A stretch of 59,638 nucleotides of DNA. It comes from an uncultured Bacteroidales bacterium (GTDB taxonomy: Bacteria > Bacteroidota > Bacteroidia > Bacteroidales > Paludibacteraceae). The position numbers and the translations under genes were made by a program. How positions within the stretch are numbered: position 1 is the first letter of the stretch; each line of letters starts with the position of its first letter. This document shows, piece after piece, positions 1,617 to 22,907 of the stretch. The notes below the pieces were generated by a model. That model was not told the origin of the DNA. It worked only from the letters and a program-made list of their open reading frames with translations, and searched no databases. The stretch spans positions 1 through 59,638 of the forward strand of contig CALDPN010000086.1 in the NCBI GenBank assembly GCA_937911235.1, given 5' to 3'.

Positions 1617-1617
1617 G

Positions 1618-2685: not shown

Positions 2686-2691
2686 TATATT

Positions 2692-6947: not shown

Positions 6948-7337
6948 TTATTTACCTGTTGTGTTTGCTACGTGCCCCGGATTTGTAATTGAGATATTAC
7001 CACCGTAGGCACACATTGTTTTACAATTGTCGAGTAGTGCTGGCATGTTTGATACCAATTCTTTGCCTCCGGGAGCCCATGGAGACACAATCACTGGGAT
7101 GCAAGGCATAGGTGTTAACACTCCCATCGCTGCAGATGTGGCAGATGCTACCGTAGGATTTGCCATAGATTGGCACATGCCAAATGGCATTATGTTCATC
7201 ATTGGTGCAAAGTCCATTATATTAGCCTTGGGTTTGTTTTGAATCATTGGTCTCAATGGCACGGTAACCATAAGTGTGGATGGTGCCATTCCGAAACTGC
7301 ATTTTAGCATTGCTCCCATGCATACATACTTAGCCAT
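6948..7337 (-). CDS. DUF4280 family PAAR-like protein
   Basis: Hallmarks GAMLKCSFGMAPSTLMV, FGMCQS, PCIPV..SPW, ALLDNCKTMCAYGGNISITNPGH. Size 129 aa. Confidence 0.8.
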   Translation of the reverse strand: MAKYVCMGAMLKCSFGMAPSTLMVTVPLRPMIQNKPKANIMDFAPMMNIMPFGMCQSMANPTVASATSAAMGVLTPMPCIPVIVSPWAPGGKELVSNMPALLDNCKTMCAYGGNISITNPGHVANTTGK

Positions 7338-7630: not shown

Positions 7631-8851
7631 GTGCTAAAAACAAATGGCATGGTAAAAAGATATGAAATAGAAACGGTAACGTTACAAGAGTGGGGAACCG
7701 ATATTTACCCTAAACTTTCTTGGTTTAAACAAAGCAAGGTTGCTTCTGCTCATGTTATGGTTGTGGGTTGTGGTGCACTAGGCAACGAGGTAATAAAAAA
7801 CTTGGCGCTTTTTGGTGTGGGCAATATTGTTTTGGTAGACTTCGATGAAGTTGAATACTCAAATCTTACTCGTTCTATTCTTTTTTGTAGTGATGATGCA
7901 AAAATGCATCGTTACAAGGTGGAAGCTGCTGCGGAGAGTGTAAAAAGAATCAATCCTAATATTAATGTGACCACGATAGTGGGCGATATAAGTAATAGTG
8001 TAGGACTAGGACTTATTCGTAAAATGAATGTGATAGTGGGCTGTCTAGATAATAGATGGGCTCGTTATACACTAAATCGCTTGTGTATGCGTGCAGGAGC
8101 TCCTTGGGTAGATGGAGGAATTAACGCTCTTGAGGGAGTGGCAAAGGTGTTTATCCCTGGCAAAAATTGTTATGCTTGCACACTTGAGCCTTCTGCTCTT
8201 GCAGAATTGAAGCGCAGTACTTCTTGCGCTGTGGCAATTAAAAGAAATCAAGAAAGTGGCAGAGTGCCTACTACTCCAGTGGTGGCATCTATTATAGGTG
8301 CAGTTCAGGCACAAGAGGCTATGAAACTGATTCATAAAGAAGAACTCCAAGGTGGAGAACTTACATCGCTTTGTGGCAAAATGTTTTGCTACGATGGAGC
8401 TTCTATGACAGTGAGGTTGGTCTCTCACGAGGCTTGGGACGAAGATTGTCCAGTTCACGAACATTGGTCTCCTGTGATAGAATCTCCTCTTACCAATCTT
8501 AATACAGTAGAAGAAGTTTTAGCATATATAAAAGATAAATTTTCAACAGACTCTGCCGAAATAGTTTTAAGAAATCAGGCATTTGTGGATTTTATTGAAG
8601 ATAGAATTACTGGTGAAAAATACAATATAATGCTACCGGAGGCTGAGGTGTCTAGTTTTATAGAAAATGATGAGGTGCTGCGCATCAAACCAATGGGGCA
8701 GTTCTATCAACATACCATACGTGGTATCAATGAAGATTTTAAATACAAAAACCTAACACTAAAACAACTTGGCATTCCAGAGCAAGATGTGTTACACGTT
8801 AGGGATGAGAGAGAATTTTACGTTGAGTTAGGGTCAACTCCTAACTTCTAA
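7631..8851 (+). CDS. ThiF/MoeB/E1-like adenylating enzyme (ubiquitin-activating-like)
   Basis: Rossmann motif VMVVGCGALGNEVIKNLALFGVGNIVLVDFDEVEYSNLTRSILF (GxGxxG...D.D.V..SNL.R). CYAC Zn-type motif followed by STSCAVA. About 130 aa of extra C-terminal domain. Start may be the ATG at 7649. Confidence 0.85.
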   Translation: MLKTNGMVKRYEIETVTLQEWGTDIYPKLSWFKQSKVASAHVMVVGCGALGNEVIKNLALFGVGNIVLVDFDEVEYSNLTRSILFCSDDAKMHRYKVEAAAESVKRINPNINVTTIVGDISNSVGLGLIRKMNVIVGCLDNRWARYTLNRLCMRAGAPWVDGGINALEGVAKVFIPGKNCYACTLEPSALAELKRSTSCAVAIKRNQESGRVPTTPVVASIIGAVQAQEAMKLIHKEELQGGELTSLCGKMFCYDGASMTVRLVSHEAWDEDCPVHEHWSPVIESPLTNLNTVEEVLAYIKDKFSTDSAEIVLRNQAFVDFIEDRITGEKYNIMLPEAEVSSFIENDEVLRIKPMGQFYQHTIRGINEDFKYKNLTLKQLGIPEQDVLHVRDEREFYVELGSTPNF

Positions 8852-8883: not shown

Positions 8884-9666
8884 ATGAAAAACACAAACAT
8901 ATCAGAATTGAGGGCAGAGGTGCTACTAAATCACTTATATCCAGAGCAAACAGATAACTGGATAGTAAGGGATAAGGGTACTTTTTATCGTAATTATAGT
9001 AGCGATATTTTGCAATTAGATGAAAAACTATCTCAAGTTTCTCTTTCACGTGATGGTTTGTTGCGTTTGCTTCCTCAGGGATTGATAAGTGCAGAAGATG
9101 ACCTTAGAGGCAAAGATTTTCCAACAAAATATGAGGAACTTACTCGTCGCAAAAACAACTTAGAAGAACTTTTTGTTCCATTCGATTCTTGGCGTTTTAG
9201 AGATGCAGTAAGAGATGAAGAGGATTTAGCAGACCTACTTGCAAATAAGCTAAATATCTTACTTAAAACATATTACGGAGTAGATATAGAGTCGGAGCAA
9301 AATCCAGATGTGAGAGAACTGATGAAAATGTTGCCTTTAGCAAGTAGTATTCGTGGCAATTATCACAAGATAGGTGATATACTAATGGTCATTTTAAAAC
9401 ATAGAGTTACTACTCACATTTCTTGCTACAATTGGAGCGACAAATTTATTGATACACAACCAATGGTAAGTTACAAGGTTTGGATTTCTAAACTTACAAA
9501 AGAAGAATATATCAGCCTTGAAAAAAATATAGAAGACTTGGTAAGTTTTATTGTTGAATGGTTTATCCCTTTTGATACACGTTGTGTAATAGAACTTAAA
9601 ACCGAAGAAAAAGCTTCGTTAAACCACACAATGCTTCTAAACTATAATACAAAGTTGAGTTTATAA
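8884..9666 (+). CDS. hypothetical protein; possible TssG-like baseplate component (weak)
   Basis: Sits in the operon between the E1 and TssK-like genes. Only faint resemblance (IRGNYHKIGDILMVILKHRV...W) to the central region of TssG. Confidence 0.3.
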   Translation: MKNTNISELRAEVLLNHLYPEQTDNWIVRDKGTFYRNYSSDILQLDEKLSQVSLSRDGLLRLLPQGLISAEDDLRGKDFPTKYEELTRRKNNLEELFVPFDSWRFRDAVRDEEDLADLLANKLNILLKTYYGVDIESEQNPDVRELMKMLPLASSIRGNYHKIGDILMVILKHRVTTHISCYNWSDKFIDTQPMVSYKVWISKLTKEEYISLEKNIEDLVSFIVEWFIPFDTRCVIELKTEEKASLNHTMLLNYNTKLSL

Positions 9667-9688: not shown

Positions 9689-10831
9689 ATGAATGTAAAT
9701 GCAAAAATAGATTGGCATGCCGGAATGGAGCTTACTGCTCAAACATTTATCGAATTAGACAAATGCTTAGAAAGAAATAGGCAAATAACAAACACAGTAG
9801 CATGTGGAAATCATTTTGGAATCCTTCCTACTACTACATTTTCTTGCAAAGGTGTGTTTGTAAAAAAGACATTGGAGATAACTCCACTTTCATTTATGGC
9901 ACTTATGCCATCTGGTAACCTACTTCATGTAGATGAAAATGTGGTGGTTGATATTCCTATTTTGTATGGAAAGGAATATTATTTAGGTTGCAAGCAAGGT
10001 GATAAAACCCGTAGTTTCGACAAAGAACAAGTGCCTTTTGTATCTCCAGTGGCAGAATGTGGTATTTACACTTTCGAAGATTTGGCGTCTGCTCAGGTGT
10101 TCCCTTTAATGAAATTTAAAGTGAACGAGGGTGTTTTCTCTGTAGATAAAGATTATATACCTCCATTTTTAACCTTAGCTTTAGATACACGTTTTCAAGA
10201 CTATATAAACACTTTTGCTTCAAAAATTTCTGTTTTAGCAAAACATAAAAATCTAGAATCATCAGAGGCGAAACGTTGCTTTCTACGTTATGCAAATGTA
10301 CTTAAAAACTACAGCACTACACATAGAGTTCAACATTTTATAGAACTACTACAAGAAATAGCAGCTGCTGTAGAATTTTATATAGTTCAAGTATTTACAG
10401 AGCATGTAATTGAACAAAAGAGTTATTCTCCATACGATATAGTATCTTACCTAACATGGCTAGATGGATATTTACATGGTGCTGCCACAATTCTAGATGG
10501 AGTTGTGCTAGAAGACAAATCAATAGACTTCGATGCTCTAAAACTACAGGTTAAAGAAGAAATTTACGAAAAAGTTTATCCAGAACTTAAAGAGGCGTTG
10601 TACAATGAATTGCACGAAGAACTTAAGAAAGAAATTTGGGATGAGCTATATTCTTCACTTTCAGATTACATCAATGGTAATTTCAGAAAAGAAATCTTTG
10701 AATTGTTAGAAGGAAGGCTTTCAGAAGAACTATACGAAAAATTGTATAAGACCTTGTACGATGGATTATACAATGCTCTATACGTGCCTGCTCCGGTAGA
10801 GGAAGAAGAAGAGTTTTTACCTTTAATTTAA
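9689..10831 (+). CDS. TssK-like baseplate protein with atypical helical-repeat C-terminus
   Basis: N-terminus IDWHAGMELTAQTFIELD resembles the TssK signature W.EGM.L.PQHFQQ.D. The last ~100 aa are EL/LY-periodic repeats. Confidence 0.45.
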   Translation: MNVNAKIDWHAGMELTAQTFIELDKCLERNRQITNTVACGNHFGILPTTTFSCKGVFVKKTLEITPLSFMALMPSGNLLHVDENVVVDIPILYGKEYYLGCKQGDKTRSFDKEQVPFVSPVAECGIYTFEDLASAQVFPLMKFKVNEGVFSVDKDYIPPFLTLALDTRFQDYINTFASKISVLAKHKNLESSEAKRCFLRYANVLKNYSTTHRVQHFIELLQEIAAAVEFYIVQVFTEHVIEQKSYSPYDIVSYLTWLDGYLHGAATILDGVVLEDKSIDFDALKLQVKEEIYEKVYPELKEALYNELHEELKKEIWDELYSSLSDYINGNFRKEIFELLEGRLSEELYEKLYKTLYDGLYNALYVPAPVEEEEEFLPLI

Positions 10832-10836
10832 AGCTT

Positions 10837-11274
10837 ATGATTACTCGTATTCCACTACAAATAAACTCAGGTGTTTTAGCCACTTATACAGATGTAAAAG
10901 AATCTATTGATGCACATGTAGAGTTGCTACTCACCACACCAGTAGGTAGTTGTGTCTCTGATCCAAACTTTGGTTTTATCTTAAATAATCTACGTTTCGA
11001 GATATTTAACGAAAACGAAGGTGTGGTGTTGAATGCAGACGAAGACCCTTCTGAACTATACGAGAAAAAGGTGTCTGGTTCTTCTAGAAATGTAAACACT
11101 TTTGCTATAGAACTTAAACAACTCATTGAACATTACGAACCAAGACTAGAAGATGTGCTTGTTACAATGTCATATGTGAGAGAGCATCGCAAAATTTACA
11201 TAACTATTAAAGGTGTTATCATAGAAACACAAACAAATTATCAGTATCAAACTTCTATTAGAATTTGGCAATAG
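10837..11274 (+). CDS. GPW/gp25-family baseplate wedge protein (TssE-like)
   Basis: SIDAHVELLLTTPVGSCVSDPNFGF matches the gp25 core I...L.T..G.R...P.FG. Size 145 aa. Confidence 0.7.
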   Translation: MITRIPLQINSGVLATYTDVKESIDAHVELLLTTPVGSCVSDPNFGFILNNLRFEIFNENEGVVLNADEDPSELYEKKVSGSSRNVNTFAIELKQLIEHYEPRLEDVLVTMSYVREHRKIYITIKGVIIETQTNYQYQTSIRIWQ

Positions 11275-11277
11275 ATT

Positions 11278-12972
11278 ATGAGAAAAAAAATATTTGCTAC
11301 AGGAGAGATGGCTAAAGAGCTTCAAAAAGAAGCTATGGCTATTTGGCGTATGGGAAGTAATGAAGAGAACTTTGAGGGGATGGAAAATGACCCAGTGGTC
11401 TCATTACTTATGACAGCCTTGGCGTATCAAGAATATACAGCTGATAATGAACTTTCTCGACTAAAAAATGAGGTACTAGAAGACTTCTCTCGTATGCTTA
11501 TCCCATACGAATTATGTCATGCGAAACCTGCAAGTGTGTTGGTGCGAACAAACACAGAAGAGCAAGTAAATAAGGTGTCGCTTCATTCTGGAATGTCATT
11601 TACGCTTAGTGAAAATAAATTCAATTTTATGCCACTTCTAGATACCACAGTTTACAATGCAAAACTAGACTCAGTGGTGCGACTAGATGCTCGTAGATGG
11701 AAGGTGAGCATAAACTTCAAAGAAGAAATTTCTTCTCTAGAGGGTTTCTCATTCCTTGTTGATAATCACAACTTCAAAGACCTAAACATTAGCCTCGGAG
11801 GTAAACGTATTTCTCTTATAAAACCTTGGCACTATGCAAATTTGCCACTTTCTAAGTGTTTCTCTATAGATTCAATGCTATACAATGAAACCTTGGCATT
11901 TGACGCTAGCACCACATGGTTCGATTTATTTGCTCAGCAAAACAAACGCATGTTTGTGGTAGAAAAATATGCAACAGACGATATTTTTACTTGCCCTGTA
12001 GACAAGATAGATTTAGTTTTTGAATTTGTGGGAATAACAGATGATTTTGTCTTTGATAAATCTCAACTAATCATAAACACAGTTCTACTTGTAAATACAA
12101 GTTTAAAAAATGCTACACTGTCTGTAAACAATCCTATTGTGCGTATTGCCGACGAAGAAGGAAATGCCTCAGAAAAACTTTTGCATTTAATGCGTCCTTC
12201 TTCTGAACAAATGTATAAAAACATTTCTTTCACTCTTCGTCGTTCTGCAATAGAGCGTTTCAATGTGGATAGTTTATTAAGACTTCTACACTGCCTAATA
12301 GACAAATATTCTACAGACTACTACGCATTTATGCAGATAGACAGACTAAAAAATGGTTTAGAAGTAAATCGTTTATATCAATGGCTTGTAAATCTAGCAA
12401 AATACCTAGAAGATTCACCAATGTCTGTGTCTTCTGGTGTGTATTTGTTACTTAAAAAAGGCAAAGATAGTTTGCTTGAAGACGAAAGTCTCACACTACA
12501 ATACCTTATCACTCAAGGTGCTATGATAAACCCATATTTAAGTACACGTGCGCAGTTCAATGTGCCAGTAGGCATCTCAATGCAAAAAACTAGCGTGGTG
12601 GCAGAGCCTGTTTTAGGCTTGGATGAAGTAGTTGGAGTGGATGTTCAAAACTCAATGTCTAGATATTATATGGTCACAAACAACAGACTTGTTACACCTG
12701 CCGATATCAAGATTTTCTGTTACAACGAGCTCCTAAGAAGATACAATATAGATTCTAGTATTATTCGCAATATAGTGGTGACAAATGCAATTCATTCAGA
12801 AAGAGGTCATTGTGGTTTTGAAACCAAAGTAGAGATACTTATTATAGATGATGTATTTGTCAAACGTAGTTTGGCAGGAAAAATAAACGAAGTAGAACTT
12901 ATTCTACAAAAAATGATAGAGGTTCGTAGTTCTTTCGCCTATCCAGTTCAAGTGAATATTCGTATTGTTTAA
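11278..12972 (+). CDS. TssF-like baseplate protein
   Basis: NDPVVSLLMTALAYQEYTADNELSRLKNEVLEDFSRMLIPYELCHAKPASVLV parallels the TssF N-terminal block DP.VERLLEGFAFL.AR....LDD.FP.....LL..L.P..L.P.PS. Size 564 aa. Sits immediately after the gp25-like gene, as in tssE-tssF. Confidence 0.55.
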   Translation: MRKKIFATGEMAKELQKEAMAIWRMGSNEENFEGMENDPVVSLLMTALAYQEYTADNELSRLKNEVLEDFSRMLIPYELCHAKPASVLVRTNTEEQVNKVSLHSGMSFTLSENKFNFMPLLDTTVYNAKLDSVVRLDARRWKVSINFKEEISSLEGFSFLVDNHNFKDLNISLGGKRISLIKPWHYANLPLSKCFSIDSMLYNETLAFDASTTWFDLFAQQNKRMFVVEKYATDDIFTCPVDKIDLVFEFVGITDDFVFDKSQLIINTVLLVNTSLKNATLSVNNPIVRIADEEGNASEKLLHLMRPSSEQMYKNISFTLRRSAIERFNVDSLLRLLHCLIDKYSTDYYAFMQIDRLKNGLEVNRLYQWLVNLAKYLEDSPMSVSSGVYLLLKKGKDSLLEDESLTLQYLITQGAMINPYLSTRAQFNVPVGISMQKTSVVAEPVLGLDEVVGVDVQNSMSRYYMVTNNRLVTPADIKIFCYNELLRRYNIDSSIIRNIVVTNAIHSERGHCGFETKVEILIIDDVFVKRSLAGKINEVELILQKMIEVRSSFAYPVQVNIRIV

Positions 12973-12988
12973 TAAAAAAAATAAGATT

Positions 12989-13306
12989 ATGGAAGAATTT
13001 TTCTTAAACATAGTTTATAAAAACAAGAAGGTACGCTTTCGCATTATAAATCCAGAAGCACCTCTTAGTACGTTAATGAGCAACCTACGCCATGCCATAG
13101 GTAAAGATGGAAGACTTATTTTCGATTTCCCATCTGTAGATAATACAGGTGCTCCACTAGATTATTTCTTTGGAAAAGAAGACGCTGAGATAAATGAAAT
13201 TAGAGTTTTACGTCCAAGAGTAGGTAAAGTGGATCAAACTTTAGCCGACTATAGCATCAAAAATGGCGATACAGTATATTTAATTCCAGACCCATTCCCA
13301 GGATAG
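12989..13306 (+). CDS. small ubiquitin-like (beta-grasp) protein candidate ending in Gly-stop
   Basis: About 105 aa from the ATG at 12989 (the track start at 12965 is TTG). Alternating beta-like segments KVRFRII...LADYSIKNGDTVYLIPDPFPG, with the C-terminal residue Gly directly before TAG. The stop is 2 nt before the E2 start. Confidence 0.5.
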   Translation: MEEFFLNIVYKNKKVRFRIINPEAPLSTLMSNLRHAIGKDGRLIFDFPSVDNTGAPLDYFFGKEDAEINEIRVLRPRVGKVDQTLADYSIKNGDTVYLIPDPFPG

Positions 13307-13308
13307 TT

Positions 13309-13869
13309 ATGAAAGAGTTAACTGGACGAAATAGACGATTGCAACACGAATGGAAAACCTTAGAAAAAAGGCTAGCCTCAAGGTCTGATATAGACTTTTC
13401 CATTTCAAAACTAAATGCACAAGGTATGCCAATAGGCTATGAAGTAACATATCATGTGAAGTCTATTTGTGGAGTTACAAACATAGAAAACTTAGACAAG
13501 CCAGGCATTGATAATGAACCAATATTTGCAGAAGAATTTAAAATGCAAATAGAAATACCAGAAGATTATCCTTGTATAGATGCAATGCCAGAGTTTTGCT
13601 TCAAAACAAAAGATTCAGAGGGCAATTCAATACCTCACCCTTGGCACCCAAATATTAGATATTTTGGAGAAATGGCAGGTAGAGTTTGTTTAAATGCACC
13701 AGATAGTTATATGGATTTGGTATGGTATGTAGAGCGAGTGGCTCTATATCTAAGATACGAACTATATCATGCCAAACAAGAGCCTCCTTATCCAGAAGAT
13801 ATTACTGTGGCACGTTGGGTACTTCGCCAGGGAGAACCAATGAGGTGGATATTTTTTAATCAAAAATAA
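13309..13869 (+). CDS. UBC-fold ubiquitin-conjugating (E2)-like protein
   Basis: EDYPCIDAMPEFCFKT...HPWHPNI (HPN at 13645-13653)...GRVCLNAP (Cys127 at 13687-13689). This reproduces the E2 pattern YP..PP...F...i.HPNi...G.iCLdil. Confidence 0.7.
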   Translation: MKELTGRNRRLQHEWKTLEKRLASRSDIDFSISKLNAQGMPIGYEVTYHVKSICGVTNIENLDKPGIDNEPIFAEEFKMQIEIPEDYPCIDAMPEFCFKTKDSEGNSIPHPWHPNIRYFGEMAGRVCLNAPDSYMDLVWYVERVALYLRYELYHAKQEPPYPEDITVARWVLRQGEPMRWIFFNQK

Positions 13870-13876
13870 TAAAGTG

Positions 13877-15055
13877 ATGAATAAAGCTGTTTGTAAATTA
13901 GTTTGTTCTTTGGTTGTTTTAACAACTGCATTTATGGCATCATGTGCTAGTAAAAAGGCCATTGAAATGCCTATAAAACCATACCAAGTAATAACAGTAT
14001 CAGAAGAAACTCCTTATACAGAAACAATTTCTACCAAAGAAGGGGCTAAAGATATGGATATGCTCCTTAAAATAGAGTATAGCGAGAACGATAATACATT
14101 AAATGTAAGTATTACTTCACAACATCATTTATTTGGTTTTAAAAACAATTCACTTTATAAAAATGTAATCAGAAACAAGAAAATTTCTCTAGTACGACTT
14201 CCATATAAAGTGGTATCAGAACCAGATATGACTTATAGATTGTCTAAAAATATCCGTAATAATATTTCTGGTTGTAACGATAAACATACATTTAAAGCCT
14301 GGATTTCTACTACAGGGTTGCATTCACAAATGTCAGACTATGAAATGGTTACAGAAATTCTAACCCAAAAGTTTGACATTGTAGGCGATACCACTATTAC
14401 AGTTACTTTAGGCGATATTATGATGATGGAGCGTTCGGTATCTAAGAAAAATCGTTACGACCTTACTTTCTATACCAACCTAAACAAATCATATGTGGTA
14501 AATATCAAGCGCAATCCGTGTTTAGGTAAGGAAGCAGAACTAGATTCTACCCAAACTTTGTTGGATGAAATTAAAGAAAACTATACATCACTAGCAAGTA
14601 AATACCCAAATGTTGAGAATCTTACACAAGAAACTCTTTTAGCTTTAGAAGAGGTGAGGGTGAAATTTGAAACTAAATACGAAAAGAAAGAAACTACAAA
14701 TGAATGCCCAGCCATAGCATCTATGCTAGAAAACTATAATACATACGTGGATTCTATAGCAAAACTAGCAGACGTGAAAGCTGAATTTGCTCATAAAAGA
14801 CCAAGACTTTCAATGCCGGCAGACCAACTATTAGCAGTGGCTCGTATGGTAGATACCAATGTGGCTTCATGGCTAGTGTCAAATGACGTGGTAGAAAAAG
14901 CCGATTTAGTTAAGCGAAACAGACACCTTATTGATGATATAAACAAGAAAATATCTAATAAAATGAGAATGGATACAGAGCAAACCAAAGCTTACGCTGT
15001 ATTCAAAAAAGCAGAAAGATACTTCAACGAAACTTGTCAAAACAAAAAGAAATGA
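13877..15055 (+). CDS. lipoprotein, unknown function
   Basis: Signal peptide with lipobox LTTAFMASC. ATG at 13877 (the track start at 13874 is GTG). 4-nt overlap with the next gene. Confidence 0.55.
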   Translation: MNKAVCKLVCSLVVLTTAFMASCASKKAIEMPIKPYQVITVSEETPYTETISTKEGAKDMDMLLKIEYSENDNTLNVSITSQHHLFGFKNNSLYKNVIRNKKISLVRLPYKVVSEPDMTYRLSKNIRNNISGCNDKHTFKAWISTTGLHSQMSDYEMVTEILTQKFDIVGDTTITVTLGDIMMMERSVSKKNRYDLTFYTNLNKSYVVNIKRNPCLGKEAELDSTQTLLDEIKENYTSLASKYPNVENLTQETLLALEEVRVKFETKYEKKETTNECPAIASMLENYNTYVDSIAKLADVKAEFAHKRPRLSMPADQLLAVARMVDTNVASWLVSNDVVEKADLVKRNRHLIDDINKKISNKMRMDTEQTKAYAVFKKAERYFNETCQNKKK

Positions 15056-15873
15056 GAAAGTTTTTTGTCTTAATATTATGCTTTGTTTGCTTTACGGCTA
15101 CTTGGGCGCAAGATACTCCTGCAGAAGCAAAAGTGGACCCATTTGCAGCACTAGAGGTGAGAGGTAGATTGTCTCTTTTTATAGAAGAAATAGAAACATT
15201 ACTTGCCAATGTGTCTTCTGCAAAACAAAAGCAACTTAAAAAAGCAGAAAAGTCGCTTAAAGCAGTAGAAAAGAAGTGGACTTTGTATAGCACTGCTCAT
15301 GGAGATGTTATTGCTTCAGAAGAAAGCCTAATGGAAGTAGTTGTGGCATACGAAGAGCGCAAACAATTATTGGCAGACTCTATAGCATCACAACTTCACA
15401 AACTCGACTCTTACGATAAGTTTGAGAGTGCAGAAGTTTTTATAGAATCTCAAATAGAACCTTATAACGAACTATATAACCAAGCAGTAGAATACTCTAT
15501 GCTAAAACAAACTGCATCACTACTAGAAAAACTTAAAACCAAAGAAGGACTTACTTTTAGTGATATTACAGCTCGTTACGAGGACTCTAAAACTATATCA
15601 GAAGAATATCCAGCCCTTAAAAAGAGAATGGAAGAATTAGAAGAGGAGTATATAGAAATTAAAGGACTTTCAGAAAAAATACAGGCTGCAGAATATAAAC
15701 CATTTCTAACTAGGATAAAAGATTACCTATATAGTTTTGCTGCAGTGGCAATGCTACTTATGTTTGCCAATATGGTACAAGCAAAAATACAAGCATCCCA
15801 ACAAATGCGTAAGAGCGCCAAAGAGTATCAAGAATTATTAAAGAAAAACGAAGAAGAAATACCTTCCATTTAA
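15052..15873 (+). CDS. exported coiled-coil protein with C-terminal membrane anchor
   Basis: ATGA overlap start gives MRKFFVLILCFVCFTATWAQ as signal peptide. Long helical E/K-rich body. Hydrophobic segment YLYSFAAVAMLLMFANMVQA near the C-terminus. Confidence 0.5.
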   Translation: MRKFFVLILCFVCFTATWAQDTPAEAKVDPFAALEVRGRLSLFIEEIETLLANVSSAKQKQLKKAEKSLKAVEKKWTLYSTAHGDVIASEESLMEVVVAYEERKQLLADSIASQLHKLDSYDKFESAEVFIESQIEPYNELYNQAVEYSMLKQTASLLEKLKTKEGLTFSDITARYEDSKTISEEYPALKKRMEELEEEYIEIKGLSEKIQAAEYKPFLTRIKDYLYSFAAVAMLLMFANMVQAKIQASQQMRKSAKEYQELLKKNEEEIPSI

Positions 15874-15880
15874 ATATATA

Positions 15881-18256
15881 ATGGCTATGAAAACTTGTAA
15901 ATTTTTATGTTTAGCATTTTTAATGCTAATAGCAGTAGGTTGTTCAGAAGGTAAATTAGATAACACTACCAGTGAAACTGAAAATCTTGAAATTTCTGAT
16001 ATTCAATTCGATGAGAATTATAAGGATTTCTCAATAGGGGTGCATTTCAAAGATGCCTTTATGCCAAAGAAAAGACTTCACATTGGCAAGATAAAACTAA
16101 ATGTTACAGAATATGATTCTGATATGAATAAGATTACAGAATCTGCTCAGCCAATTTTCAGAGGTGCTAAAAACCTTCATTCAGAAAAGATAAAAGATTT
16201 AGGCATCAAAGGTCTAGTGCTAGTGGACTTGTCTTTAGACGAATTGCAAATAGAAAAAGAGAAAGGGGCAGTAGAAAGTTTGAGAGAGTTTGTTTTTGAA
16301 AACCAACTATATGTAGCCTTTATGCAAGATGGCAAGGTGAGCCCAACTTATCCTGCTACAGATTATGTTCTAGACAATTACTTTATTCCAAATCAAGCTC
16401 CTAAAAAATTGTTTGGTAGTATAGTTGCTAAGATGGATGAGATGAAAAGTGAAGATTCTGAATTTTTCTCACAAACAGCAACAGAAAATAAAGTACTTAT
16501 TGTGTTTTCCGACGGACATATCTACAATGGTGATAAACCTATAGATCCTAAACACTTTGAGTATCAAGAAATATTACTAAACCAAACAAAGCAAGACGAT
16601 AAACTACAATTTTGTTATGTAAACTTCAACGAAGAAAAAGACGATGAGTTTGCAGTGGAGAATGATGTAGAAAACATATTCACATACATTTGCAAAGGCT
16701 TGGGTGGAGCGTATATTCCAGACGTGGATATGAAACAAATAGCTACAGAGGTAATGCGTGGTAGAGATAGTGAAAAAGTGGATTTTAGACTAAAACTTAC
16801 AAATCCAGATCATAAAATTTACCGTGGCGACGAAAGAATACTTAAGGTTAATTGTATGTATGATGGAGAACTACTTTTCACAGGTTCTAAATCATATTCT
16901 TTAGGTAGTGTGTATAAACCTGTTATAGTCAATGGTTCTGGTTTATATAGCGTATTAATACAAGCCGCAGTATTTACATTAATATTAGTATTATCCATCT
17001 ACGTGGTATTTCAACTAATAGAACCTTATGTGAAATATCGTATCTTCAAGTATAAATACGTAACCAAATATACAGGGCCAAATATGAGTTGGAGAGGCAT
17101 CCAAGTGCCAGATTCATGCTACTATTGTAAAACACCATTCGAGATAGGCGACGAGATAGTAGTGAAATGTGAGCACGTTATGGATATGTCTTGTTGGAAA
17201 GAAAATTTATACAGATGCCCTGAATATGGCAGAAGATGCAATTTAGGAAAGCACTATTACAACGACAAAAACATTTTCGATAAGAAAAATGCACCTTATT
17301 ATATGAAGTGGCTTTTAGCTGGTACATTGGCAGGGTTCGTAGCATGGTTCTTCTTTATATTAGGCACCTTCCACTCAGATCTGTCATTTATAAATGGAAT
17401 ATATGATAAGGTTTCACAATTTGACCCTTTAAGAGATATGGTGTTTGGTTTACACAATAATGTAACATCAGGCATGTTTGCTGCACCATACTTTGGTTTC
17501 TTTATGTGTTTCTGTTTAACCCTTGCCTTAAGTTTACTTTCTAGTCATGGTAAATGGTTGTACAAACGCACAGTTGTGGTACTTATAAAATCTTTAGTCG
17601 CAGGTATATGTGGTTATCTTACATATCTATTAGTAGTGTTGGCACTAATCGCATTCAAGCTAAAAGGTTATTATTATATGATAGACTGGATACCATGGGC
17701 ATTAAATGGTTATATAGTGGCATATGCAGTAGCATTTAAAACAGATATTAAACTGAAAAAAGCATTAATGGGTGCAACTATTTCTATGGGATTCTCAATA
17801 GCCTCAATGTATCTTTGGAATTATTCAACACATTCACACATAGATACTAGAGATTTATTATTGGTAAGTTGTTTAATATATGGCATCGGCTTAGCAGCCA
17901 GTCTTGCTATAAATTTTCCACAATCTGAACGCTATTTTATAAAGGTGGAAGGACCAATTAAAACTATGGAGTTGGCACTTTATAAGTGGATGAACGCACA
18001 AGTTATAAACCGCTGCGTTACCATAGGTAAGTCTGTGGATTGTAATCTGCAAATGTCTTGGGATATAAATAGTGCCATTGCCCCAAAACAAGCAGAACTA
18101 AAAATGATAGGAGGTAATATCTATCTTATTCCACTTGAAAACGGCGTCACTTTCAAAGGTAAACCAGCTATCATAGACAAACGCATTCACCTATATCACG
18201 GCGACAAGTTTGTGATAGGACAAACTAAGTTCACATATGTAGAACACGATGTGTAA
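15881..18256 (+). CDS. multidomain membrane protein: lipoprotein signal, vWA-like domain, TM, RING-like Zn finger, polytopic TM block, FHA-like C-terminus
   Basis: Lipobox LIAVGC. vWA-like strands GLVLVDLSLD and VLIVFSDG. C413-x2-C-x13-C-x-H-x5-C-x7-C-x6-C453 (17117-17239). About six further hydrophobic helices. C-terminal TIGKSVDCNLQM...AELKMIGGNIYLIPLENGVTFKGKP...LYHGDKFVIGQTKFTY has the FHA topology pattern with divergent pThr-binding residues. Confidence 0.6.
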   Translation: MAMKTCKFLCLAFLMLIAVGCSEGKLDNTTSETENLEISDIQFDENYKDFSIGVHFKDAFMPKKRLHIGKIKLNVTEYDSDMNKITESAQPIFRGAKNLHSEKIKDLGIKGLVLVDLSLDELQIEKEKGAVESLREFVFENQLYVAFMQDGKVSPTYPATDYVLDNYFIPNQAPKKLFGSIVAKMDEMKSEDSEFFSQTATENKVLIVFSDGHIYNGDKPIDPKHFEYQEILLNQTKQDDKLQFCYVNFNEEKDDEFAVENDVENIFTYICKGLGGAYIPDVDMKQIATEVMRGRDSEKVDFRLKLTNPDHKIYRGDERILKVNCMYDGELLFTGSKSYSLGSVYKPVIVNGSGLYSVLIQAAVFTLILVLSIYVVFQLIEPYVKYRIFKYKYVTKYTGPNMSWRGIQVPDSCYYCKTPFEIGDEIVVKCEHVMDMSCWKENLYRCPEYGRRCNLGKHYYNDKNIFDKKNAPYYMKWLLAGTLAGFVAWFFFILGTFHSDLSFINGIYDKVSQFDPLRDMVFGLHNNVTSGMFAAPYFGFFMCFCLTLALSLLSSHGKWLYKRTVVVLIKSLVAGICGYLTYLLVVLALIAFKLKGYYYMIDWIPWALNGYIVAYAVAFKTDIKLKKALMGATISMGFSIASMYLWNYSTHSHIDTRDLLLVSCLIYGIGLAASLAINFPQSERYFIKVEGPIKTMELALYKWMNAQVINRCVTIGKSVDCNLQMSWDINSAIAPKQAELKMIGGNIYLIPLENGVTFKGKPAIIDKRIHLYHGDKFVIGQTKFTYVEHDV

Positions 18257-18259
18257 TTT

Positions 18260-19045
18260 TTACTCACTCCACTTTACACCTTCCCATATCTCGTACGACT
18301 TGAGTGCTTGGTTTACGAACATTGGCCAACCGTTTTGGATGCGTGCCCCGCATGTTTCGGCTTGACGCAAATATAAGGTTTCAATCGGATTATAGATAAG
18401 GTCATAAACAACGTGGTCTCTTGTGATGCAGTGATATGGAATATTAGGGCATTCCTTCACATTTGGGAAAGTACCCACAGGCGATGTGTTTATAAGCACT
18501 GTGTGCGCTTTGATTATCTCGTCTGTTAGTTCGCCGTATGTAAGACCATTTTCTACATTGTTTCTAGACACAAACTTATATGAAATACCAAGTAAGTCTA
18601 GTGAATATGCAATAGCTTTACTTGCTCCACCAGTGCCTAGGATAAGAGCTTGTTTGTGACTATCGTTGATAAGTGGTTTAAAAGACTCTGTAAAACCATA
18701 CCAATCGGTGTTGTAACCTTTTAGGTATTTGCTGCCGTCTTCACGAGTTTCTACTTTCACTACATTCACTGCGCCCATTGCGCTAGCGTGCTCGTCTAGT
18801 TCGTCAAGATAAGGAATAACAGCTTGTTTGTAGGGAATTGTTACATTTAGCCCTACAAGCATAGGATGCTCCTTAATAATATTAGGGAACTCCTCTATAC
18901 TGCTTATCTCAAACTTTAAATACTCAGAAGGAATTCCTTTCTGGGCAAATCTCTCGTTAAAAAACGTAGGTGAAAGAGAATGGCACAGAGGATTTCCAAT
19001 GATGCCGTACTCTTTTGTAATATGTTTATTTGTTTTTCTTAGCAT
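18260..19045 (-). CDS. aroE: shikimate dehydrogenase
   Basis: YGIIGNPLCHSLSP, NVTIPYK, LGTGGASKA motifs. Confidence 0.85.
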   Translation of the reverse strand: MLRKTNKHITKEYGIIGNPLCHSLSPTFFNERFAQKGIPSEYLKFEISSIEEFPNIIKEHPMLVGLNVTIPYKQAVIPYLDELDEHASAMGAVNVVKVETREDGSKYLKGYNTDWYGFTESFKPLINDSHKQALILGTGGASKAIAYSLDLLGISYKFVSRNNVENGLTYGELTDEIIKAHTVLINTSPVGTFPNVKECPNIPYHCITRDHVVYDLIYNPIETLYLRQAETCGARIQNGWPMFVNQALKSYEIWEGVKWSE

Positions 19046-19748
19046 AGTGTTTGATGATAAAGTAAATAACTAAAATGGCAAAAAGAGCCATAATCACCAC
19101 AGAAAGTTCGTGGCTATATGCTTCAATTAGGTCTTGTTGACCTTGTGCAATGTAACCCAGTAATGCAAGAACGCAGTTCCAAGCGCCAGCACCTAGAGCG
19201 GTAAACAAGCAGAATGAAAATAAATTCATTTTAGCAAGACCAGCAGGGATAGAAATAAGTTGTCTTACCGCTGGTATAAGTCTGCCAATTAGGGTAGAGA
19301 TTTTGCCGTGTTTCACAAAATAGTCTTCTGCCACTTGTATCTTCTCTTTGCTTAGAAGGCAAAGGTGTCCTATCTTGCTATCGGCAAATTTATACATAAT
19401 AGGTCTGCCAAGCCAAAGGGCTAAAAAGTAATTGATTAATGCTCCAATAAGTGCGCCTAATGTACCAGAAATAACTACTAAATAGATATTTAAACTGCTT
19501 CCTTCTTTGCTTGCAATATATGCAGCAGGAGGAATTACAATTTCAGAAGGGAAGGGAATGAAAGAACTTTCCACAGCCATAAGAGCAGTAATGGTATAGT
19601 AGTTCATGTTTTCTTCATACCAATTTTCTACTACTTGAATTATGCTTGGGTTTTCTACTTTTTCAACTTTTTCTACTTTTGCACTGTCTTGGCTAAATGC
19701 ACATGTTGCAAATAGCATAGCAGCAATTAAACTAATTACTTTTTGCAT
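19026..19748 (-). CDS. DedA/SNARE-associated family membrane protein
   Basis: VESSFIPFPSEIVIPPAAY and GRLIPAVRQLISIPAG motifs. Multiple TM segments. Confidence 0.8.
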   Translation of the reverse strand: MQKVISLIAAMLFATCAFSQDSAKVEKVEKVENPSIIQVVENWYEENMNYYTITALMAVESSFIPFPSEIVIPPAAYIASKEGSSLNIYLVVISGTLGALIGALINYFLALWLGRPIMYKFADSKIGHLCLLSKEKIQVAEDYFVKHGKISTLIGRLIPAVRQLISIPAGLAKMNLFSFCLFTALGAGAWNCVLALLGYIAQGQQDLIEAYSHELSVVIMALFAILVIYFIIKHYAKKNK

Positions 19749-21135
19749 TATTAAGTGTATTATAAAATTCTTGTTTCGCTAGTTCGTCTGGTTCTTTGTC
19801 AAATGCTTTTTGTGCAGCATCAAAATCGCCCAATACGGTGTAACAACGTGAGATAAAGATGTTTACATGGTGCATATCAGGACAATCCTTTTCCACCTCA
19901 AGAGCAATTTTTAGTGCTTTATTAGGGTTGTTTGCATTCAAATAATATTGAGCCACTATCATGTGAATGTTAGGGTCTTTTGAGTCTCTTAATAGTTCTC
20001 TGTTAAGTTTGTCGGCTTGAGCACGTAGGCCTTTGTCTTCGCCTAAAATCTTAGCTACAAAAGACTTATAGAAATGATTCTCAGGGTCTAACTCCCACGA
20101 TTTCACAGCTGCTCTATATCCTTTTTCTGCTTGGTCGTCTAAAATGTAAGCCACTGCTAGTGAATGATATATCTCAGCTCTGTCTGGGAATTCTACTAGC
20201 ACAGTCTTAAATAAATTAATAGCCTTTTTAGGCTTGTTCATAAGCAGATAGCATTCTGCCTTTATGATTAATACCTCATAATCATTTGGGTCTAGCTTCT
20301 CTGCGTCGTCTAGATATTTAATAGCTTTATTAAGGTTGCCTTTCACCTTATATACTCTAGCTAGATTTTTAAGGCACGCAAGATTTGTGTCGTCTATGGC
20401 AAAAGCTATATCAAAAGCTTTAATGGCTTCGTCGAAGTCGTTGCTTCTAGCCATAAGATTACCAAAGTTTATCCAAGTGATATTGTCGTATGGGTCTTCG
20501 TCTAAGTGCTCTTGAAGAAGTTTAATGCCTTTTTCAACTTCACCCATCGATTCATAACAAAGTGCGATATTGTTTATAGCTGCTACCCTGTGTATAGAAT
20601 CGTTTAATATTTTTTTTAAGCATTTAATAGCAAATGAATGGTCTCCTGCTGTCATAGCAATAAGAGAAACATCATTATAAAGGTCTGCTTCCCTTATGTC
20701 TGTGGTGGCTAAGATATGGTCTATAGTAGGATATACCTTGTCGTAATCGCCCACTCTGAGTGCACACTCAATAATAAGTTTCATAAGATATTCTCTAAGA
20801 GAATCTATCTTGTCGTCGCTTCTTTCTTCGTCGCCATCTTCGATATCTTCCTCTTCCTTCTCTTCTTTATATTCTTCAGGTTGCTCTATATTATATCCTT
20901 CAGCGTCATCTTCTGGTAGTTCGTTGTACCATTCATCTAGCCCGTCGTCTATAAAATTATTGCTTATGCCCATATCGATAAGTGATATGGTATATTCTGC
21001 CACATCAATTATCTCATGGTATTTTCCAAGGCCATAAAGAATATCAGTTAGGTCCAATAATTCCTTCGTACTGAAATTATTGATGCCATCATCTAAATAT
21101 CTTTGATAAATATCTTGTTGATTAAAATTACTCAT
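19732..21135 (-). CDS. tetratricopeptide-repeat protein
   Basis: Repeated 34-aa A/Y/L-patterned units (e.g. AIKAFDIAFAIDDTN, AIKYLDDAEKLDPND). Start more likely at MSNFNQQ (21135) than at the track ATG 21162. Confidence 0.7.
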   Translation of the reverse strand: MSNFNQQDIYQRYLDDGINNFSTKELLDLTDILYGLGKYHEIIDVAEYTISLIDMGISNNFIDDGLDEWYNELPEDDAEGYNIEQPEEYKEEKEEEDIEDGDEERSDDKIDSLREYLMKLIIECALRVGDYDKVYPTIDHILATTDIREADLYNDVSLIAMTAGDHSFAIKCLKKILNDSIHRVAAINNIALCYESMGEVEKGIKLLQEHLDEDPYDNITWINFGNLMARSNDFDEAIKAFDIAFAIDDTNLACLKNLARVYKVKGNLNKAIKYLDDAEKLDPNDYEVLIIKAECYLLMNKPKKAINLFKTVLVEFPDRAEIYHSLAVAYILDDQAEKGYRAAVKSWELDPENHFYKSFVAKILGEDKGLRAQADKLNRELLRDSKDPNIHMIVAQYYLNANNPNKALKIALEVEKDCPDMHHVNIFISRCYTVLGDFDAAQKAFDKEPDELAKQEFYNTLNNAKSN

Positions 21136-22228
21136 TTTTTTTCTCCTCCTTTTGCGTTGCACCTATCTTTAATACATAATACTCATAATAAGAAACTATG
21201 AGTGTAGTAATAGGTAGTGCAATAATCATGCCTAAAATTCCAAACATCGCCCCCCAAATAGAAAGTGACAACAAAATAACAGCAGGATTTAGTCCTGTGG
21301 CATCGCCCATTATCTTAGGAACTAAAACTGCATCAACAATTACCTGTATAATACCAAATGCTAATACAATGTATAACACATAAAGTCCAAAACTATCACC
21401 ATATTGAGCCGATTGCACAAGTGCCACGAATAGTGCAGGGATTATGCCCAATGTGTGCATATATGGTATCATGTGTAGCACGGCAATAAGCAGACCAAGA
21501 CCAATTGACATTCCAAGCCCCATTATACTAAATGCAATAGCAAATAAAGTACCCACGATAATAGAAATTAGTGCTTGTTTTCTAAAGTAAGTATTCATAT
21601 AAGTTCCCATATCATGAATCAACTTAATAGAAAACTCTCTGTATTGTGCTGGTACATATTTGTTCCATTTGTCAGACAAATTATCAAAGTCTTTCATAAT
21701 AAAGAAAAGATAAAGTGTAAACAAAAATATAACTACTGCACCTGCCACGTACTTAAGCGAAGCAGAAACCACCTCGAAAGCCTGTGGAACTAAGTCGTTT
21801 ATAAATTCATCATATGTAAATTCTTTCAGCCATTGCTCAAAATTGAGTGAAGCAAGGAAAGTTTCTAAATGTGGTTTAATAAAACCAGGATATTGAGATG
21901 CGTTTTTATTCGAAACAAACTGCTGAGCAAGAAACTGTAAATCCGACAATTCTTTGCTCAAACTATTCAAAATAAAATAGAAAAAAGCCCCAATAAGTCC
22001 TATAAGTAGGATTAAAACTATTATTACACTAGCAGTTCTATTTTTAATTTTCAGTTTGTTTTGAAAAAAGTTTACAAACGGATTTAGCATATAAGCCACA
22101 AACCAAGCGGCCACAAATGGTAACAAAACGTCGCCTAGCATATATACAGCGTATATAAGTAGCGCAAATATGCTTAATCTAATAATTAATCTAACAGTAG
22201 AATCTAGTGTAAATGGTTTTTCAAACAT
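21128..22228 (-). CDS. AI-2E family transporter (PerM/UPF0118)
   Basis: About 8 TM segments. LPFVAAWFVAYMLNP and PKIMGDATGLNP motifs. Confidence 0.8.
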   Translation of the reverse strand: MFEKPFTLDSTVRLIIRLSIFALLIYAVYMLGDVLLPFVAAWFVAYMLNPFVNFFQNKLKIKNRTASVIIVLILLIGLIGAFFYFILNSLSKELSDLQFLAQQFVSNKNASQYPGFIKPHLETFLASLNFEQWLKEFTYDEFINDLVPQAFEVVSASLKYVAGAVVIFLFTLYLFFIMKDFDNLSDKWNKYVPAQYREFSIKLIHDMGTYMNTYFRKQALISIIVGTLFAIAFSIMGLGMSIGLGLLIAVLHMIPYMHTLGIIPALFVALVQSAQYGDSFGLYVLYIVLAFGIIQVIVDAVLVPKIMGDATGLNPAVILLSLSIWGAMFGILGMIIALPITTLIVSYYEYYVLKIGATQKEEKKNE

Positions 22229-22251
22229 TTGCTACATAAATTTAAAATGTT

Positions 22252-22267
22252 TACATTTGCAAATGTA
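22252..22267. promoter_or_regulatory. palindromic double -7 box TACATTTGCAAATGTA serving two divergent genes
   Basis: Perfect 16-nt palindrome that reads TAnnTTTG on both strands. It lies between the minus-strand start at 22228 and the plus-strand start at 22296. Confidence 0.35.
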
Positions 22268-22295
22268 ATTAATAAACATAGTTTATACAATTTTT

Positions 22296-22907
22296 ATGGA
22301 TAAAAATTCGTTAATATTAGAGATAAAAAACGATTTAAATTCAATTAAAAAACAAGTAGAAGTTACTCTTGCAAAGCTTGCAGTTCTAGAATCAATGATA
22401 GAACTCGATAAGAAGTTAGGGGTTTCGGTCGCTGAGCCTGTCGAAGAGTTAGGAGTTAGGAGTGAGGAGTTAGGAGTTAAAGAACCTAAACAAGAGAGTA
22501 GGGACAATGCGTGCATTGTCCGAGATGCTGAAGAGGTCGCTGAACCTGTGAAGCAACCAGAACCTGTTGTCGAAGCGCCCGTTGAAGAGTTAGGAGTTGA
22601 AGAACCTGCGCCCGTTGCAGTGCCAATAGAAGAGAGTAGGGACAATGCGTGCATTGTCCGTGAGTCAGAACCGGAAGAAGCACTAGAACTTCGTAACCTA
22701 ATGTCAGTGATTGGCTTAAATGATAGATTCCGTTTCCGTCACGATTTGTTCTCAAATAGCGACGAACTTTTTAAAGAAACCATAGATATACTAAACAAAA
22801 TAGAAGATTTTGACAAAGCAGTAGATTATCTAGTGCAAAAGTTTGCTTGGGACGAAGAAGATGCTACTGTGGTGTATTTTTATGATATTATAAAACCAAA
22901 ATTCTAG
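22296..22907 (+). CDS. hypothetical protein whose central linker is encoded by dispersed repeat modules
   Basis: Helical N-terminus and a compact C-terminal domain (LNDRFRFRHDLFSNSDELF...). The middle ~85 aa is translated from heptamer and hairpin repeat modules (ESRDNACIVR occurs twice). Confidence 0.5.
   Translation: MDKNSLILEIKNDLNSIKKQVEVTLAKLAVLESMIELDKKLGVSVAEPVEELGVRSEELGVKEPKQESRDNACIVRDAEEVAEPVKQPEPVVEAPVEELGVEEPAPVAVPIEESRDNACIVRESEPEEALELRNLMSVIGLNDRFRFRHDLFSNSDELFKETIDILNKIEDFDKAVDYLVQKFAWDEEDATVVYFYDIIKPKF
22427..22662 (+). repeat. cluster of dispersed repeat modules inside a CDS
   Basis: GGTCGCTGAGCCTGTCGAAG (22427-22446). GAGTTAG-type heptamers x5 (22446-22480). A 31-nt exact direct repeat AAGAGAGTAGGGACAATGCGTGCATTGTCCG at 22492-22522 and 22630-22660. 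A second GCTGAACCTGTGAAG copy and a short heptamer run near 22586. Confidence 0.8.

Follow-up and report, generated by a model that had tools for sequence, protein, structure and literature searches.

A predicted RING-H2-like membrane protein encoded with a ubiquitin-like cascade in a type VI secretion gene cluster of Bacteroidales

Could a bacterial membrane protein with a zinc finger-like motif be a ubiquitin ligase (E3) and, if so, which machinery would it serve? The question is raised by one gene in a 59,638-nucleotide stretch of DNA from an uncultured Bacteroidales bacterium (contig CALDPN010000086.1). We refer to this stretch, at its full length, as the window. A sequence-only reading had described the gene product as an envelope-spanning protein of 791 amino acids (aa), combining vWA-like, RING-like and FHA-like modules, and had named it a candidate transmembrane (TM) E3. 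The open reading frame (ORF) was located exactly where it had been placed, at positions 15881-18256 of the + strand. On balance, we favour the view that this product, hereafter the RING protein, is a membrane-embedded RING-H2 E3-like part of a cascade for a ubiquitin-like protein (Ubl) in a Bacteroidales type VI secretion system (T6SS). Probably, it is also the inner-membrane core of the T6SS membrane complex. The E3 activity, the substrates and the membrane-complex role of the RING protein are what we infer. The parts of the gene, with the evidence used to place them, are as follows.

15881-18256, + strand: whole gene, 791 aa with an ATG start, encoding a vWA-TM-RING-6TM-FHA membrane protein; last gene of its operon
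15881-15943, + strand: signal peptide and lipobox LIAVGC (residues 1-21, with Cys21); translation, alignment and hydropathy
15974-16180, + strand: periplasmic beta-sandwich 1 (about residues 32-100); AlphaFold secondary structure
16202-16756, + strand: periplasmic vWA domain (about residues 108-292); Foldseek, and Pfam VWA in a distant homologue
16772-16915, + strand: periplasmic beta-sandwich 2 (about residues 298-345); AlphaFold model
16943-17011, + strand: TM1 (residues 355-377), then a K/R-rich cytoplasmic juxtamembrane stretch; hydropathy and AlphaFold
17111-17260, + strand: predicted cytoplasmic RING-H2-like finger (residues 411-460); ligand pattern, Pfam and AlphaFold/Foldseek
17303-17914, + strand: six-helix bundle TM2-TM7 (residues 475-678); hydropathy and AlphaFold helices
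17927-18250, + strand: predicted cytoplasmic FHA-fold domain (residues 683-790) with a non-canonical phosphothreonine (pThr) pocket; Foldseek, and Pfam in homologues

The finger is defined by a Cys/His cluster with the arrangement C413-x2-C416-x13-C430-x-H432-x5-C438-x7-C446-x6-C453. The codon for C413 starts at nucleotide 17117 and that for C453 ends at nucleotide 17239, so matching precisely the pattern, and the interval, reported from the sequence. Homologues were sought in one genome per species and the best 80 of 134 species loci were analysed. The ORFs of these 80 species-representative loci were scanned with a fixed-spacing pattern. The wider family pattern is C-x2-C-x13-C-x-H-x2-H-x2-C-x7-C-x6-C, corresponding to a C3H2C3 RING-H2 finger, and the spacing was identical in all 80 loci. 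Ligand 5 (residue 435, nucleotides 17183-17185) is His in 76 loci and Asp in four, these being the window and the Enterocola clade. The Asp is a RING-D-like substitution. A Trp follows ligand 6 in 80/80 loci and a Pro follows ligand 7 in 78/80, while H458, in the same segment, is also invariant. The CP pointed out after the penultimate ligand corresponds to this Pro. Conservation of the Cys/His cluster in homologues had been set beforehand as one of three tests of the E3 proposal, beside topology and the C-terminal fold, and none of the three came out against it; the cluster was invariant in 80/80 loci, and its model is nearest to RING-H2 E3s (see below). Furthermore, the RING has the highest mean majority-residue frequency of any segment of the protein (0.84, compared with 0.71 for the FHA region and 0.42-0.56 for the periplasmic domains). 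Judged by this conservation, we conclude that the cluster is real, far beyond chance, and under strong selection.

We compared the finger with known RINGs using both profiles and models. At full length, the window protein gives a weak RING match in Pfam (zf-RING_2, E 0.019). Among the 37 homologues of our main alignment, which are 35-82% identical, zf-RING_2 is matched by all 37, Prok-RING_1 by 35 and Prok-RING_4 by 33. As an isolated domain, the window RING scores 20.1 bits against zf-RING_2 (cutoff 27.3) and 12.9 bits against Prok-RING_1 (cutoff 29.1). The best isolated homologue RINGs reach 26.5 bits and 27.5 bits, respectively, against the same cutoffs. Because the RING scores just below curated cutoffs, databases annotate the protein as 'FHA domain-containing' or hypothetical. 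An AlphaFold model of residues 390-474 had a predicted local distance difference test (pLDDT) score of 78.5. Its top Foldseek matches were the RING-H2 E3s RNF13, RNF38, RNF165/Ark2C, RNF12, RMR1 and ZNRF1, with probabilities of no more than 0.94 and a root-mean-square deviation (rmsd) of 2-3.5 Å over ~60 residues. The E-values were 0.16 or above, which is not unexpected given the small size of the domain. A profile search of the PDB aligned RNF24, RNF126, Arkadia, Hrd1/synoviolin, Pirh2 and ZNRF3 in register (E 0.1-0.3). We conclude, from the modelling, that the finger is likely to be a RING-H2 relative, no single match being statistically significant. Note that the closest eukaryotic parallels, in overall plan, are the PA-TM-RING E3s (RNF13, RMR1 and GRAIL) and ZNRF3/RNF43. 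These also place an extracytoplasmic domain, a TM and a cytosolic C3H2C3 finger in one chain, and two of them, RNF13 and RMR1, rank with the best structural hits of the RING model, although not at statistical significance. Unlike these E3s, the RING protein has a vWA rather than a PA ectodomain, six extra TMs, an FHA domain, x6 spacing between two ligands and partners encoded in a bacterial operon.

Those partners lie immediately upstream. The RING gene is the last of ten co-directional and tightly spaced genes, all of which are intact in the window. The other nine, including a predicted activating enzyme (E1) and conjugating enzyme (E2), are listed here.

7631-8851, + strand: E1-like adenylating enzyme (ThiF with a C-terminal extension), first gene of the operon; Pfam ThiF 1.4e-53
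8884-9666, + strand: p260, conserved protein; TssG is suggested by size and gene position alone
9689-10831, + strand: TssK-like baseplate protein; NCBIfam TssK 1.3e-9, below the family cutoff
10837-11274, + strand: TssE or gp25-like baseplate wedge; Pfam GPW_gp25 4e-13, NCBIfam TssE 2.3e-10
11278-12972, + strand: p564, a probable TssF-like baseplate protein on weak evidence; one homologue matches the T6SS_TssF N-terminus at E 0.011
12989-13306, + strand: Ubl of 105 aa, ending PDPFPG and then stop; PDB profile and alignment
13309-13869, + strand: E2 with the motif HPWHPNIR...AGRVC(L/I)N and predicted catalytic Cys127; invariant motif
13874-15055, + strand: lp393, a conserved lipoprotein and candidate membrane-complex partner; translation
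15034-15873, + strand: p279, an exported coiled coil with a C-terminal TM; translation

In a profile search of the PDB, the Ubl matches ubiquitin over the C-terminal half of the latter (E 0.003-0.006), and the sequence PDP[FI]PG directly precedes the stop codon in 78/78 homologues. Hence, the C-terminal Gly is already exposed and no processing is needed. The Ubl is the most conserved protein of the operon, at 70-83% identity, compared with 30-60% for the others (35-63% for E1, E2 and RING). Similarly, the HPN motif of the E2, and the Cys at the catalytic position, are invariant in homologues, and the E1 is conserved in 70/80 loci. The invariant E2 motif, together with the free C-terminal Gly of the Ubl, argues for real conjugation. 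An E1, an HPN-Cys E2 and an exposed-Gly Ubl in the same operon support the E3 interpretation of the sequence-only reading, with E3 activity as the presumed function. A YukD-like identity for the Ubl was considered and rejected: Pfam gave a weak Rad60-SLD match and the PDB profile matched ubiquitin itself. Note that the TTG start at 12965 in the ORF list is probably too far upstream, as homologues start MEEFF or MEDFF (12989).

The genes of the Ubl cascade are interleaved, in one operon, with those for TssK-, TssE- and TssF-like baseplate proteins. Profile searches of the PDB with p564 and p260 returned nothing useful. In Parabacteroides- and Prevotella-type contigs, a complete T6SS cluster is present, and the operon makes up its second half. 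The full cluster, of about 20 genes, encodes a ClpV/ClpB-like AAA+ protein, TssB, TssC (PF17541), three to four Hcp proteins (PF17642), VgrG, p598, a DUF4280 protein, an RRF-like protein and then the E1 through to the RING protein, with housekeeping genes as direct neighbours at both ends. In other genomes, an Hcp-VgrG module is found downstream of the RING gene instead. We conclude that the gene belongs to a T6SS gene cluster; the sequence-only reading had drawn the T6SS as an analogy alone.

This arrangement is widespread. At least 134 Bacteroidales species of the gut and rumen have relatives of the RING protein, and the carriers include Parabacteroides distasonis, Alistipes, Bacteroides, Mediterranea, Prevotella, Xylanibacter ruminicola and, as the source of the window, Candidatus Enterocola (Paludibacteraceae). 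The order of the ten genes is kept in at least 70/80 loci across Parabacteroides, Alistipes, Bacteroides and Prevotella, and loci fall short of the full order because contigs end. An exhaustive profile search with the RING protein found 426 clusters (50% identity) at E<=1e-3, and the architecture of ~760-840 aa holds to E values of about 1e-54. The RING pattern is retained by most divergent members that were inspected. In P0347 and P0356, Asp stands in place of the second Cys of the C-x2-C pair, and in P0356 the residue corresponding to His432 is Asn as well. At three distant loci, the surroundings are rearranged. The first (L090) encodes the RING protein, a 254-aa protein and an E1 sharing 44% identity with that of the window. 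Another (L091) has, in turn, a Ubl, an E2, three genes, the RING protein, an E1, p274, p305, gp25, p544 and an M23 peptidase. In the last (L089, 2-1384), the gene directly upstream of that for the RING protein encodes a TM protein with the JAB/MPN+ motif HTHPGHTPFLSQPD. Linkage of the RING to E1, E2, Ubl, gp25 and JAB thus outlasts rearrangement, which argues that the RING is functionally tied to the Ubl cascade and the baseplate module.

On which side of the membrane would the finger lie? Modelled at full length with AlphaFold2 (pLDDT 76.6), the protein has the order beta-sandwich (about 36-98), alpha/beta domain (about 110-290), second beta-sandwich (about 300-340), long TM helix and zinc-finger-like module (394-445). 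These are followed by a helical membrane bundle (474-678) and a C-terminal beta-sandwich (683-790). Hydropathy and AlphaFold agree on TM2-TM7, at residues 475-497, 531-554, 564-591, 598-618, 625-651 and 657-678; after TM1, at 355-377, these make up the one plus six TMs proposed earlier. The proposed lipoprotein signal LIAVGC is also present, and Cys21 is conserved in at least 90% of the 37 aligned sequences. Distant homologues have a plain signal peptide instead of the lipobox, and the N-terminus is exported in all members. An exported N-terminus and seven TMs together would place both the segment after TM1, with the RING, and that after TM7, with the FHA domain, in the cytoplasm. The charge distribution of the loops fits this placement: there are 6 K/R and 1 D/E after TM1, 3 K/R in each of the TM3-4 and TM5-6 loops, and the TM2-3 loop is acidic. 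The RING-like and FHA-like parts are therefore predicted to be on the same side. Modelling indicates a polytopic inner-membrane protein with a periplasmic head. For the description 'envelope-spanning', this retains the periplasmic head and the inner-membrane span; a reach to the outer membrane is not retained. Briefly, Foldseek searches with the full model also returned class C G protein-coupled receptors (CaSR, GABA-B and the sweet receptor), at probabilities of 0.14-0.5 and an rmsd near 40 Å. We rejected this likeness, and take the matches as a probable coincidence of architecture, an alpha/beta head plus seven TMs.

The alpha/beta domain of the periplasmic head resembles vWA structures in the PDB. 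Foldseek matches included ArnB of ArnAB (3e-5), integrin beta3 (2e-4), the anthrax toxin receptor, NorD and TFIIH p44. The strands VLVDLSLD and VLIVFSDG, picked out from the translation as vWA-like, fall in this domain, and a distant homologue, P0380, passes Pfam VWA (4.6e-12; 46.9 bits, cutoff 23.8). The metal ion-dependent adhesion site (MIDAS) of the window protein is degenerate (D116-L-S118-L-D120, with SDG at 210-212). Across the Bacteroidales clade, the third MIDAS position is variable, and the canonical DxSxS is found in distant homologues such as P0380.

At the other end of the protein, the anticipated FHA sandwich is recovered by modelling. Foldseek matched the C-terminus to Ki67 (8e-4), CEP170, DgcB and YscD/PscD, with a probability of 1.0 and target-relative TM-scores of 0.5-0.7. 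Pfam FHA is matched by 22/37 members (best 2.9e-10) and the YscD-type cytoplasmic FHA family by 10/37. The window protein itself has no Pfam FHA match at E<=1, and a profile search of its FHA region against the PDB gave nothing useful. The pocket substitutions listed by the sequence-only reading (GK, APKQA and ENG) are all present. In a profile-profile alignment to the Ki67 FHA domain, G716-K717 aligns with Gly-Arg, and Q737 with the canonical His. At the canonical Arg position, 68 of 73 homologues have Lys and five have Arg; the positions of Asn and His are mostly taken by Glu or Asp and by Gln, respectively. The canonical pThr-binding residues are not kept. From its residues, the FHA domain is best read as a phospho-independent scaffold, like that of YscD or EssC.

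What would connect this protein to the membrane complex of a T6SS? Homologues of TssJ/L/M or TssNQOPR were not detectable in the cluster using Pfam and NCBIfam. According to the window translations, the exported or membrane-anchored products of the E1-to-RING operon are lp393, p279 and the RING protein (p598, p156/p163 and p260 are outside this count). The remaining cluster genes have soluble-type T6SS assignments. The three proteins match no T6SS membrane-complex family in Pfam or NCBIfam, where the presence of TssN-R models is not established. From the described domains, and these searches, we rejected lp393, p279 and the RING protein as detectable homologues of TssN, TssO, TssP, TssQ or TssR. 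TssNQOPR is stated to be the only membrane-complex type in Bacteroidota, and its described domains are a vWA in TssR, a TM and beta-grasp in TssN, and PKD, with no RING or FHA (Bongiovanni et al. 2024, PMC10781749). Such T6SS-iii systems share with the present cluster the phylum, the sheath and tube families TssC PF17541 and TssD PF17642, the expected anchoring of a baseplate and, in TssR, a vWA. They differ in that the RING and FHA found here have no counterpart in described TssNQOPR. Two side observations concern p279. In P0239, P0280 and P0332 (1015-1100 aa, metagenomic), p279 apparently forms the N-terminal part of a single in-frame chain with the RING/FHA protein, which suggests that the two proteins interact. 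In the Prevotella-type locus L083 (8977-9984), the p279 homologue has an N-terminal LysM domain (4.4e-10), recalling peptidoglycan-anchoring variants of TssL/TagL. Both features count towards the proposed membrane-complex role.

We propose the following mechanism. The E1 would adenylate the C-terminal Gly of the Ubl and load Cys127 of the E2. The cytoplasmic RING would dock E2~Ubl at the membrane, beside the docking site of the baseplate, while the phospho-independent FHA domain would hold a baseplate protein or substrate. The Ubl could then be moved onto a T6SS component, or the membrane protein itself, so licensing assembly, firing or recycling. Along with lp393 and p279, the vWA head in the periplasm would anchor the machine and may sense the envelope. 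By analogy, the RING protein might be the functional counterpart of PpkA (vWA-TM-kinase) plus Fha1, with Ubl tagging replacing Thr phosphorylation. The two share a periplasmic vWA, a TM, a cytoplasmic catalytic-type module and an FHA domain, as in the T6SS Thr phosphorylation pathway of PpkA and Fha1/TagH. Unlike that pathway, a RING takes the place of the kinase, the FHA domain is in the same polypeptide and lacks the pThr residues, and the cluster has no kinase or phosphatase. In its fullest form, the proposal is that the envelope anchor of the T6SS is a ubiquitin ligase, and that E1, E2, Ubl and RING tag the baseplate, tail or cargo. This would replace both the Thr-phosphorylation switch and TssJLM/TssNQOPR, in a system widespread among Bacteroidales of the human and animal gut. 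We put this fuller form forward tentatively, as a possibility on the doubtful side of even.

Several observations weigh against the interpretation that we favour. Ligands 7 and 8 of the finger are spaced by x6, where x2 is canonical, and ligand 5 of the window protein is Asp, not His. No RING of the family reaches a Pfam gathering score, or a significant E-value. The role in the membrane complex was reached by elimination. No E3 is needed by the bacterial E1/E2 systems that have been characterised (Bil, Bub and CBASS Cap2), and the E2 of the present operon may be equally independent of one. There is no deubiquitinase-like gene in the Bacteroidales cluster. In the window strain, genes for sheath, tube and spike are absent from the 6.2 kb upstream, and the window and L001, a relative with 97% identity, differ in sequence upstream of position 6249 (L001 1-403). 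Some of these points bear on a different account of the finger, as a zinc-stabilised interaction or oligomerisation module in a T6SS membrane scaffold. In that case, the E2 would act without an E3, or the Ubl would be used non-covalently, like YukD in the type VII secretion system b (T7SSb). The RING matches below thresholds, and the atypical spacing of ligands 7 and 8, are consistent with such a module. So are the characterised bacterial Ubl systems, which have no E3s (Bub paper), and T7SSb, which is reported to combine FHA domains with a Ubl that is not conjugated (PMC12637312). A 2011 abstract by Burroughs et al., which reportedly remarks that not all prokaryotic RINGs are ubiquitin-related, also speaks for it. 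However, a mere scaffold sits poorly with the RING being the most conserved segment of the protein, and with retention of E2-contact-type residues, namely the Trp after ligand 6 and the Pro after ligand 7. It also leaves aside linkage to E1, E2, Ubl and JAB that persists through rearrangements, and an E2 catalytic motif and free Ubl C-terminal Gly that are both invariant. We consider the scaffold account unlikely.

The two remaining alternatives concern the setting, rather than the finger. Since Bil, CBASS and similar E1/E2/Ubl operons are defence systems, the cascade could belong to an anti-phage or other defence system that merely neighbours baseplate-like genes. The E1 does match PADLOC E1-E2 models, and tail genes are not adjacent in the window strain. 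However, PADLOC matches only the generic E1 adenylation domain, and the other nine operon proteins are unmatched. Moreover, the ubiquitin-related genes are interleaved with those for TssK, TssE and a TssF-like protein in one tight, co-directional operon, and, in relatives, the cluster starts ClpV-TssB-TssC-Hcp-VgrG and is flanked by housekeeping genes. We regard a defence system as quite improbable. Still less probable, and given hardly any weight here, is phospho-signalling, in which the FHA domain would read phosphothreonine and the protein would be a phospho-dependent assembly factor like Fha1/TagH. FHA proteins, and the vWA-TM-kinase PpkA, do regulate the T6SS in Proteobacteria, and the FHA fold is confirmed here. 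The residues argue otherwise: Lys stands for Arg in 68/73 homologues, Asn is mostly Glu or Asp, and His is mostly Gln. In addition, ten members match the phospho-independent YscD-type FHA family, and no gene for a Hanks-type Ser/Thr kinase or a PP2C-type phosphatase is present among the about 20 genes of the cluster.

How does the favoured E3-like interpretation relate to known systems? Burroughs, Iyer and Aravind reportedly predicted, computationally, in 2011, that TM-associated prokaryotic RINGs occur next to genes for E1, E2 and Ubl. The Pfam family Prok-RING_1 (PF14446) derives from that work. The RING protein resembles the Prok-RING_1 and Prok-RING_4 families in having a bacterial RING-H2-type finger, TM helices and E1/E2/Ubl neighbours. 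It differs in the fusion of a periplasmic vWA, a 6-TM bundle and an FHA domain, in the T6SS cluster, and in the Bacteroidales cluster having no JAB peptidase. Since the scores are below the Prok-RING_1 cutoff, the family is probably outside those used to build the models. In Caldiarchaeum subterraneum, an operon encodes an E1, an E2, a small, soluble RING and ubiquitin; the latter is made as a precursor that Rpn11 cleaves, and the operon is not linked with any secretion machine (Hennell James et al. 2017, PMC5654768). Both cases are a eukaryote-like three-enzyme cascade, with a RING, encoded by a prokaryotic operon. The Bacteroidales RING differs in being part of a polytopic membrane protein, and the Bacteroidales Ubl has one exposed Gly at its end. 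Finally, Bil, Bub and CBASS Cap2 share the bacterial E1, E2 and Ubl chemistry, whereas they have no RING E3, usually have a dedicated peptidase, and are located in defence islands. Membership of Bub or Bil was rejected: the Bub papers describe no RING or membrane E3, and PADLOC matched the generic E1 only.

We know of no bacterial RING E3 whose activity alongside a cognate E1, E2 and Ubl has been demonstrated. A full-text literature search, which the 2011 prokaryotic-RING paper lies outside, found no paper linking the T6SS to an E1/E2/Ubl cascade in Bacteroidota. If correct, our interpretation would mean that a bacterial transmembrane RING E3 acts alongside an E1, E2 and Ubl of its own. A contractile secretion machine would also, for the first time, be connected with ubiquitin-like conjugation, in that the T6SS nanoweapon may be built, or controlled, through such tagging. 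This would bear on the origin of eukaryote-like three-enzyme ubiquitination in prokaryotes, on how T6SS assembly is switched on post-translationally outside Proteobacteria, and on what anchors the T6SSs of Bacteroidota without TssNQOPR. As carriers include the cultivable Parabacteroides distasonis, Xylanibacter ruminicola and Mediterranea, the hypothesis is open to genetics and biochemistry.

The surroundings of the operon differ between strains. In the window, two further cluster genes lie just upstream, on the opposite strand.

6948-7337, - strand: DUF4280 or IglG-type PAAR-like spike tip; Pfam DUF4280 2.1e-33, NCBIfam IglG 3.4e-13
6237-6932, - strand: RRF-domain protein travelling with the cluster; Pfam 6.5e-14

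Of the T6SS set, the window thus has only baseplate and PAAR-like genes adjacent to the RING gene. Using tblastn, no homologues of Hcp, VgrG, TssB, TssC, ClpV or p598 were found in the 59.6 kb window. Upstream of the point of divergence, a p598-like T6SS gene is present in L001; in the window, this place is taken by an ATPase_2/STAND-like gene (4671-6119, - strand) and four exported or lipoprotein genes.

Some minor features recur. The RRF-domain protein usually adjoins the DUF4280 gene, sometimes in two copies (L083 648-1442 and 19976-20707; L085 10001-10699), and its database name, 'ribosome recycling factor', is probably wrong in this context. A cluster of exported and lipoprotein genes that includes DUF6175 (744-1616, 2.7e-74) occupies 295-4407 (+ strand) of the window and 16454-22400 (- strand) of locus L081. 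It lies close to the Ub/T6SS operon in Enterocola as well as in Parabacteroides. A gene for a PEGA-domain protein also recurs in the neighbourhood (L081 and L083). Following the lp571 gene, at 4565-4657 (+ strand) of the window, 31 aa match the C-terminal end of a 477-aa protein encoded in the neighbourhood of the Parabacteroides operon (55% identity, E 3e-6), and this stretch is possibly a gene remnant.

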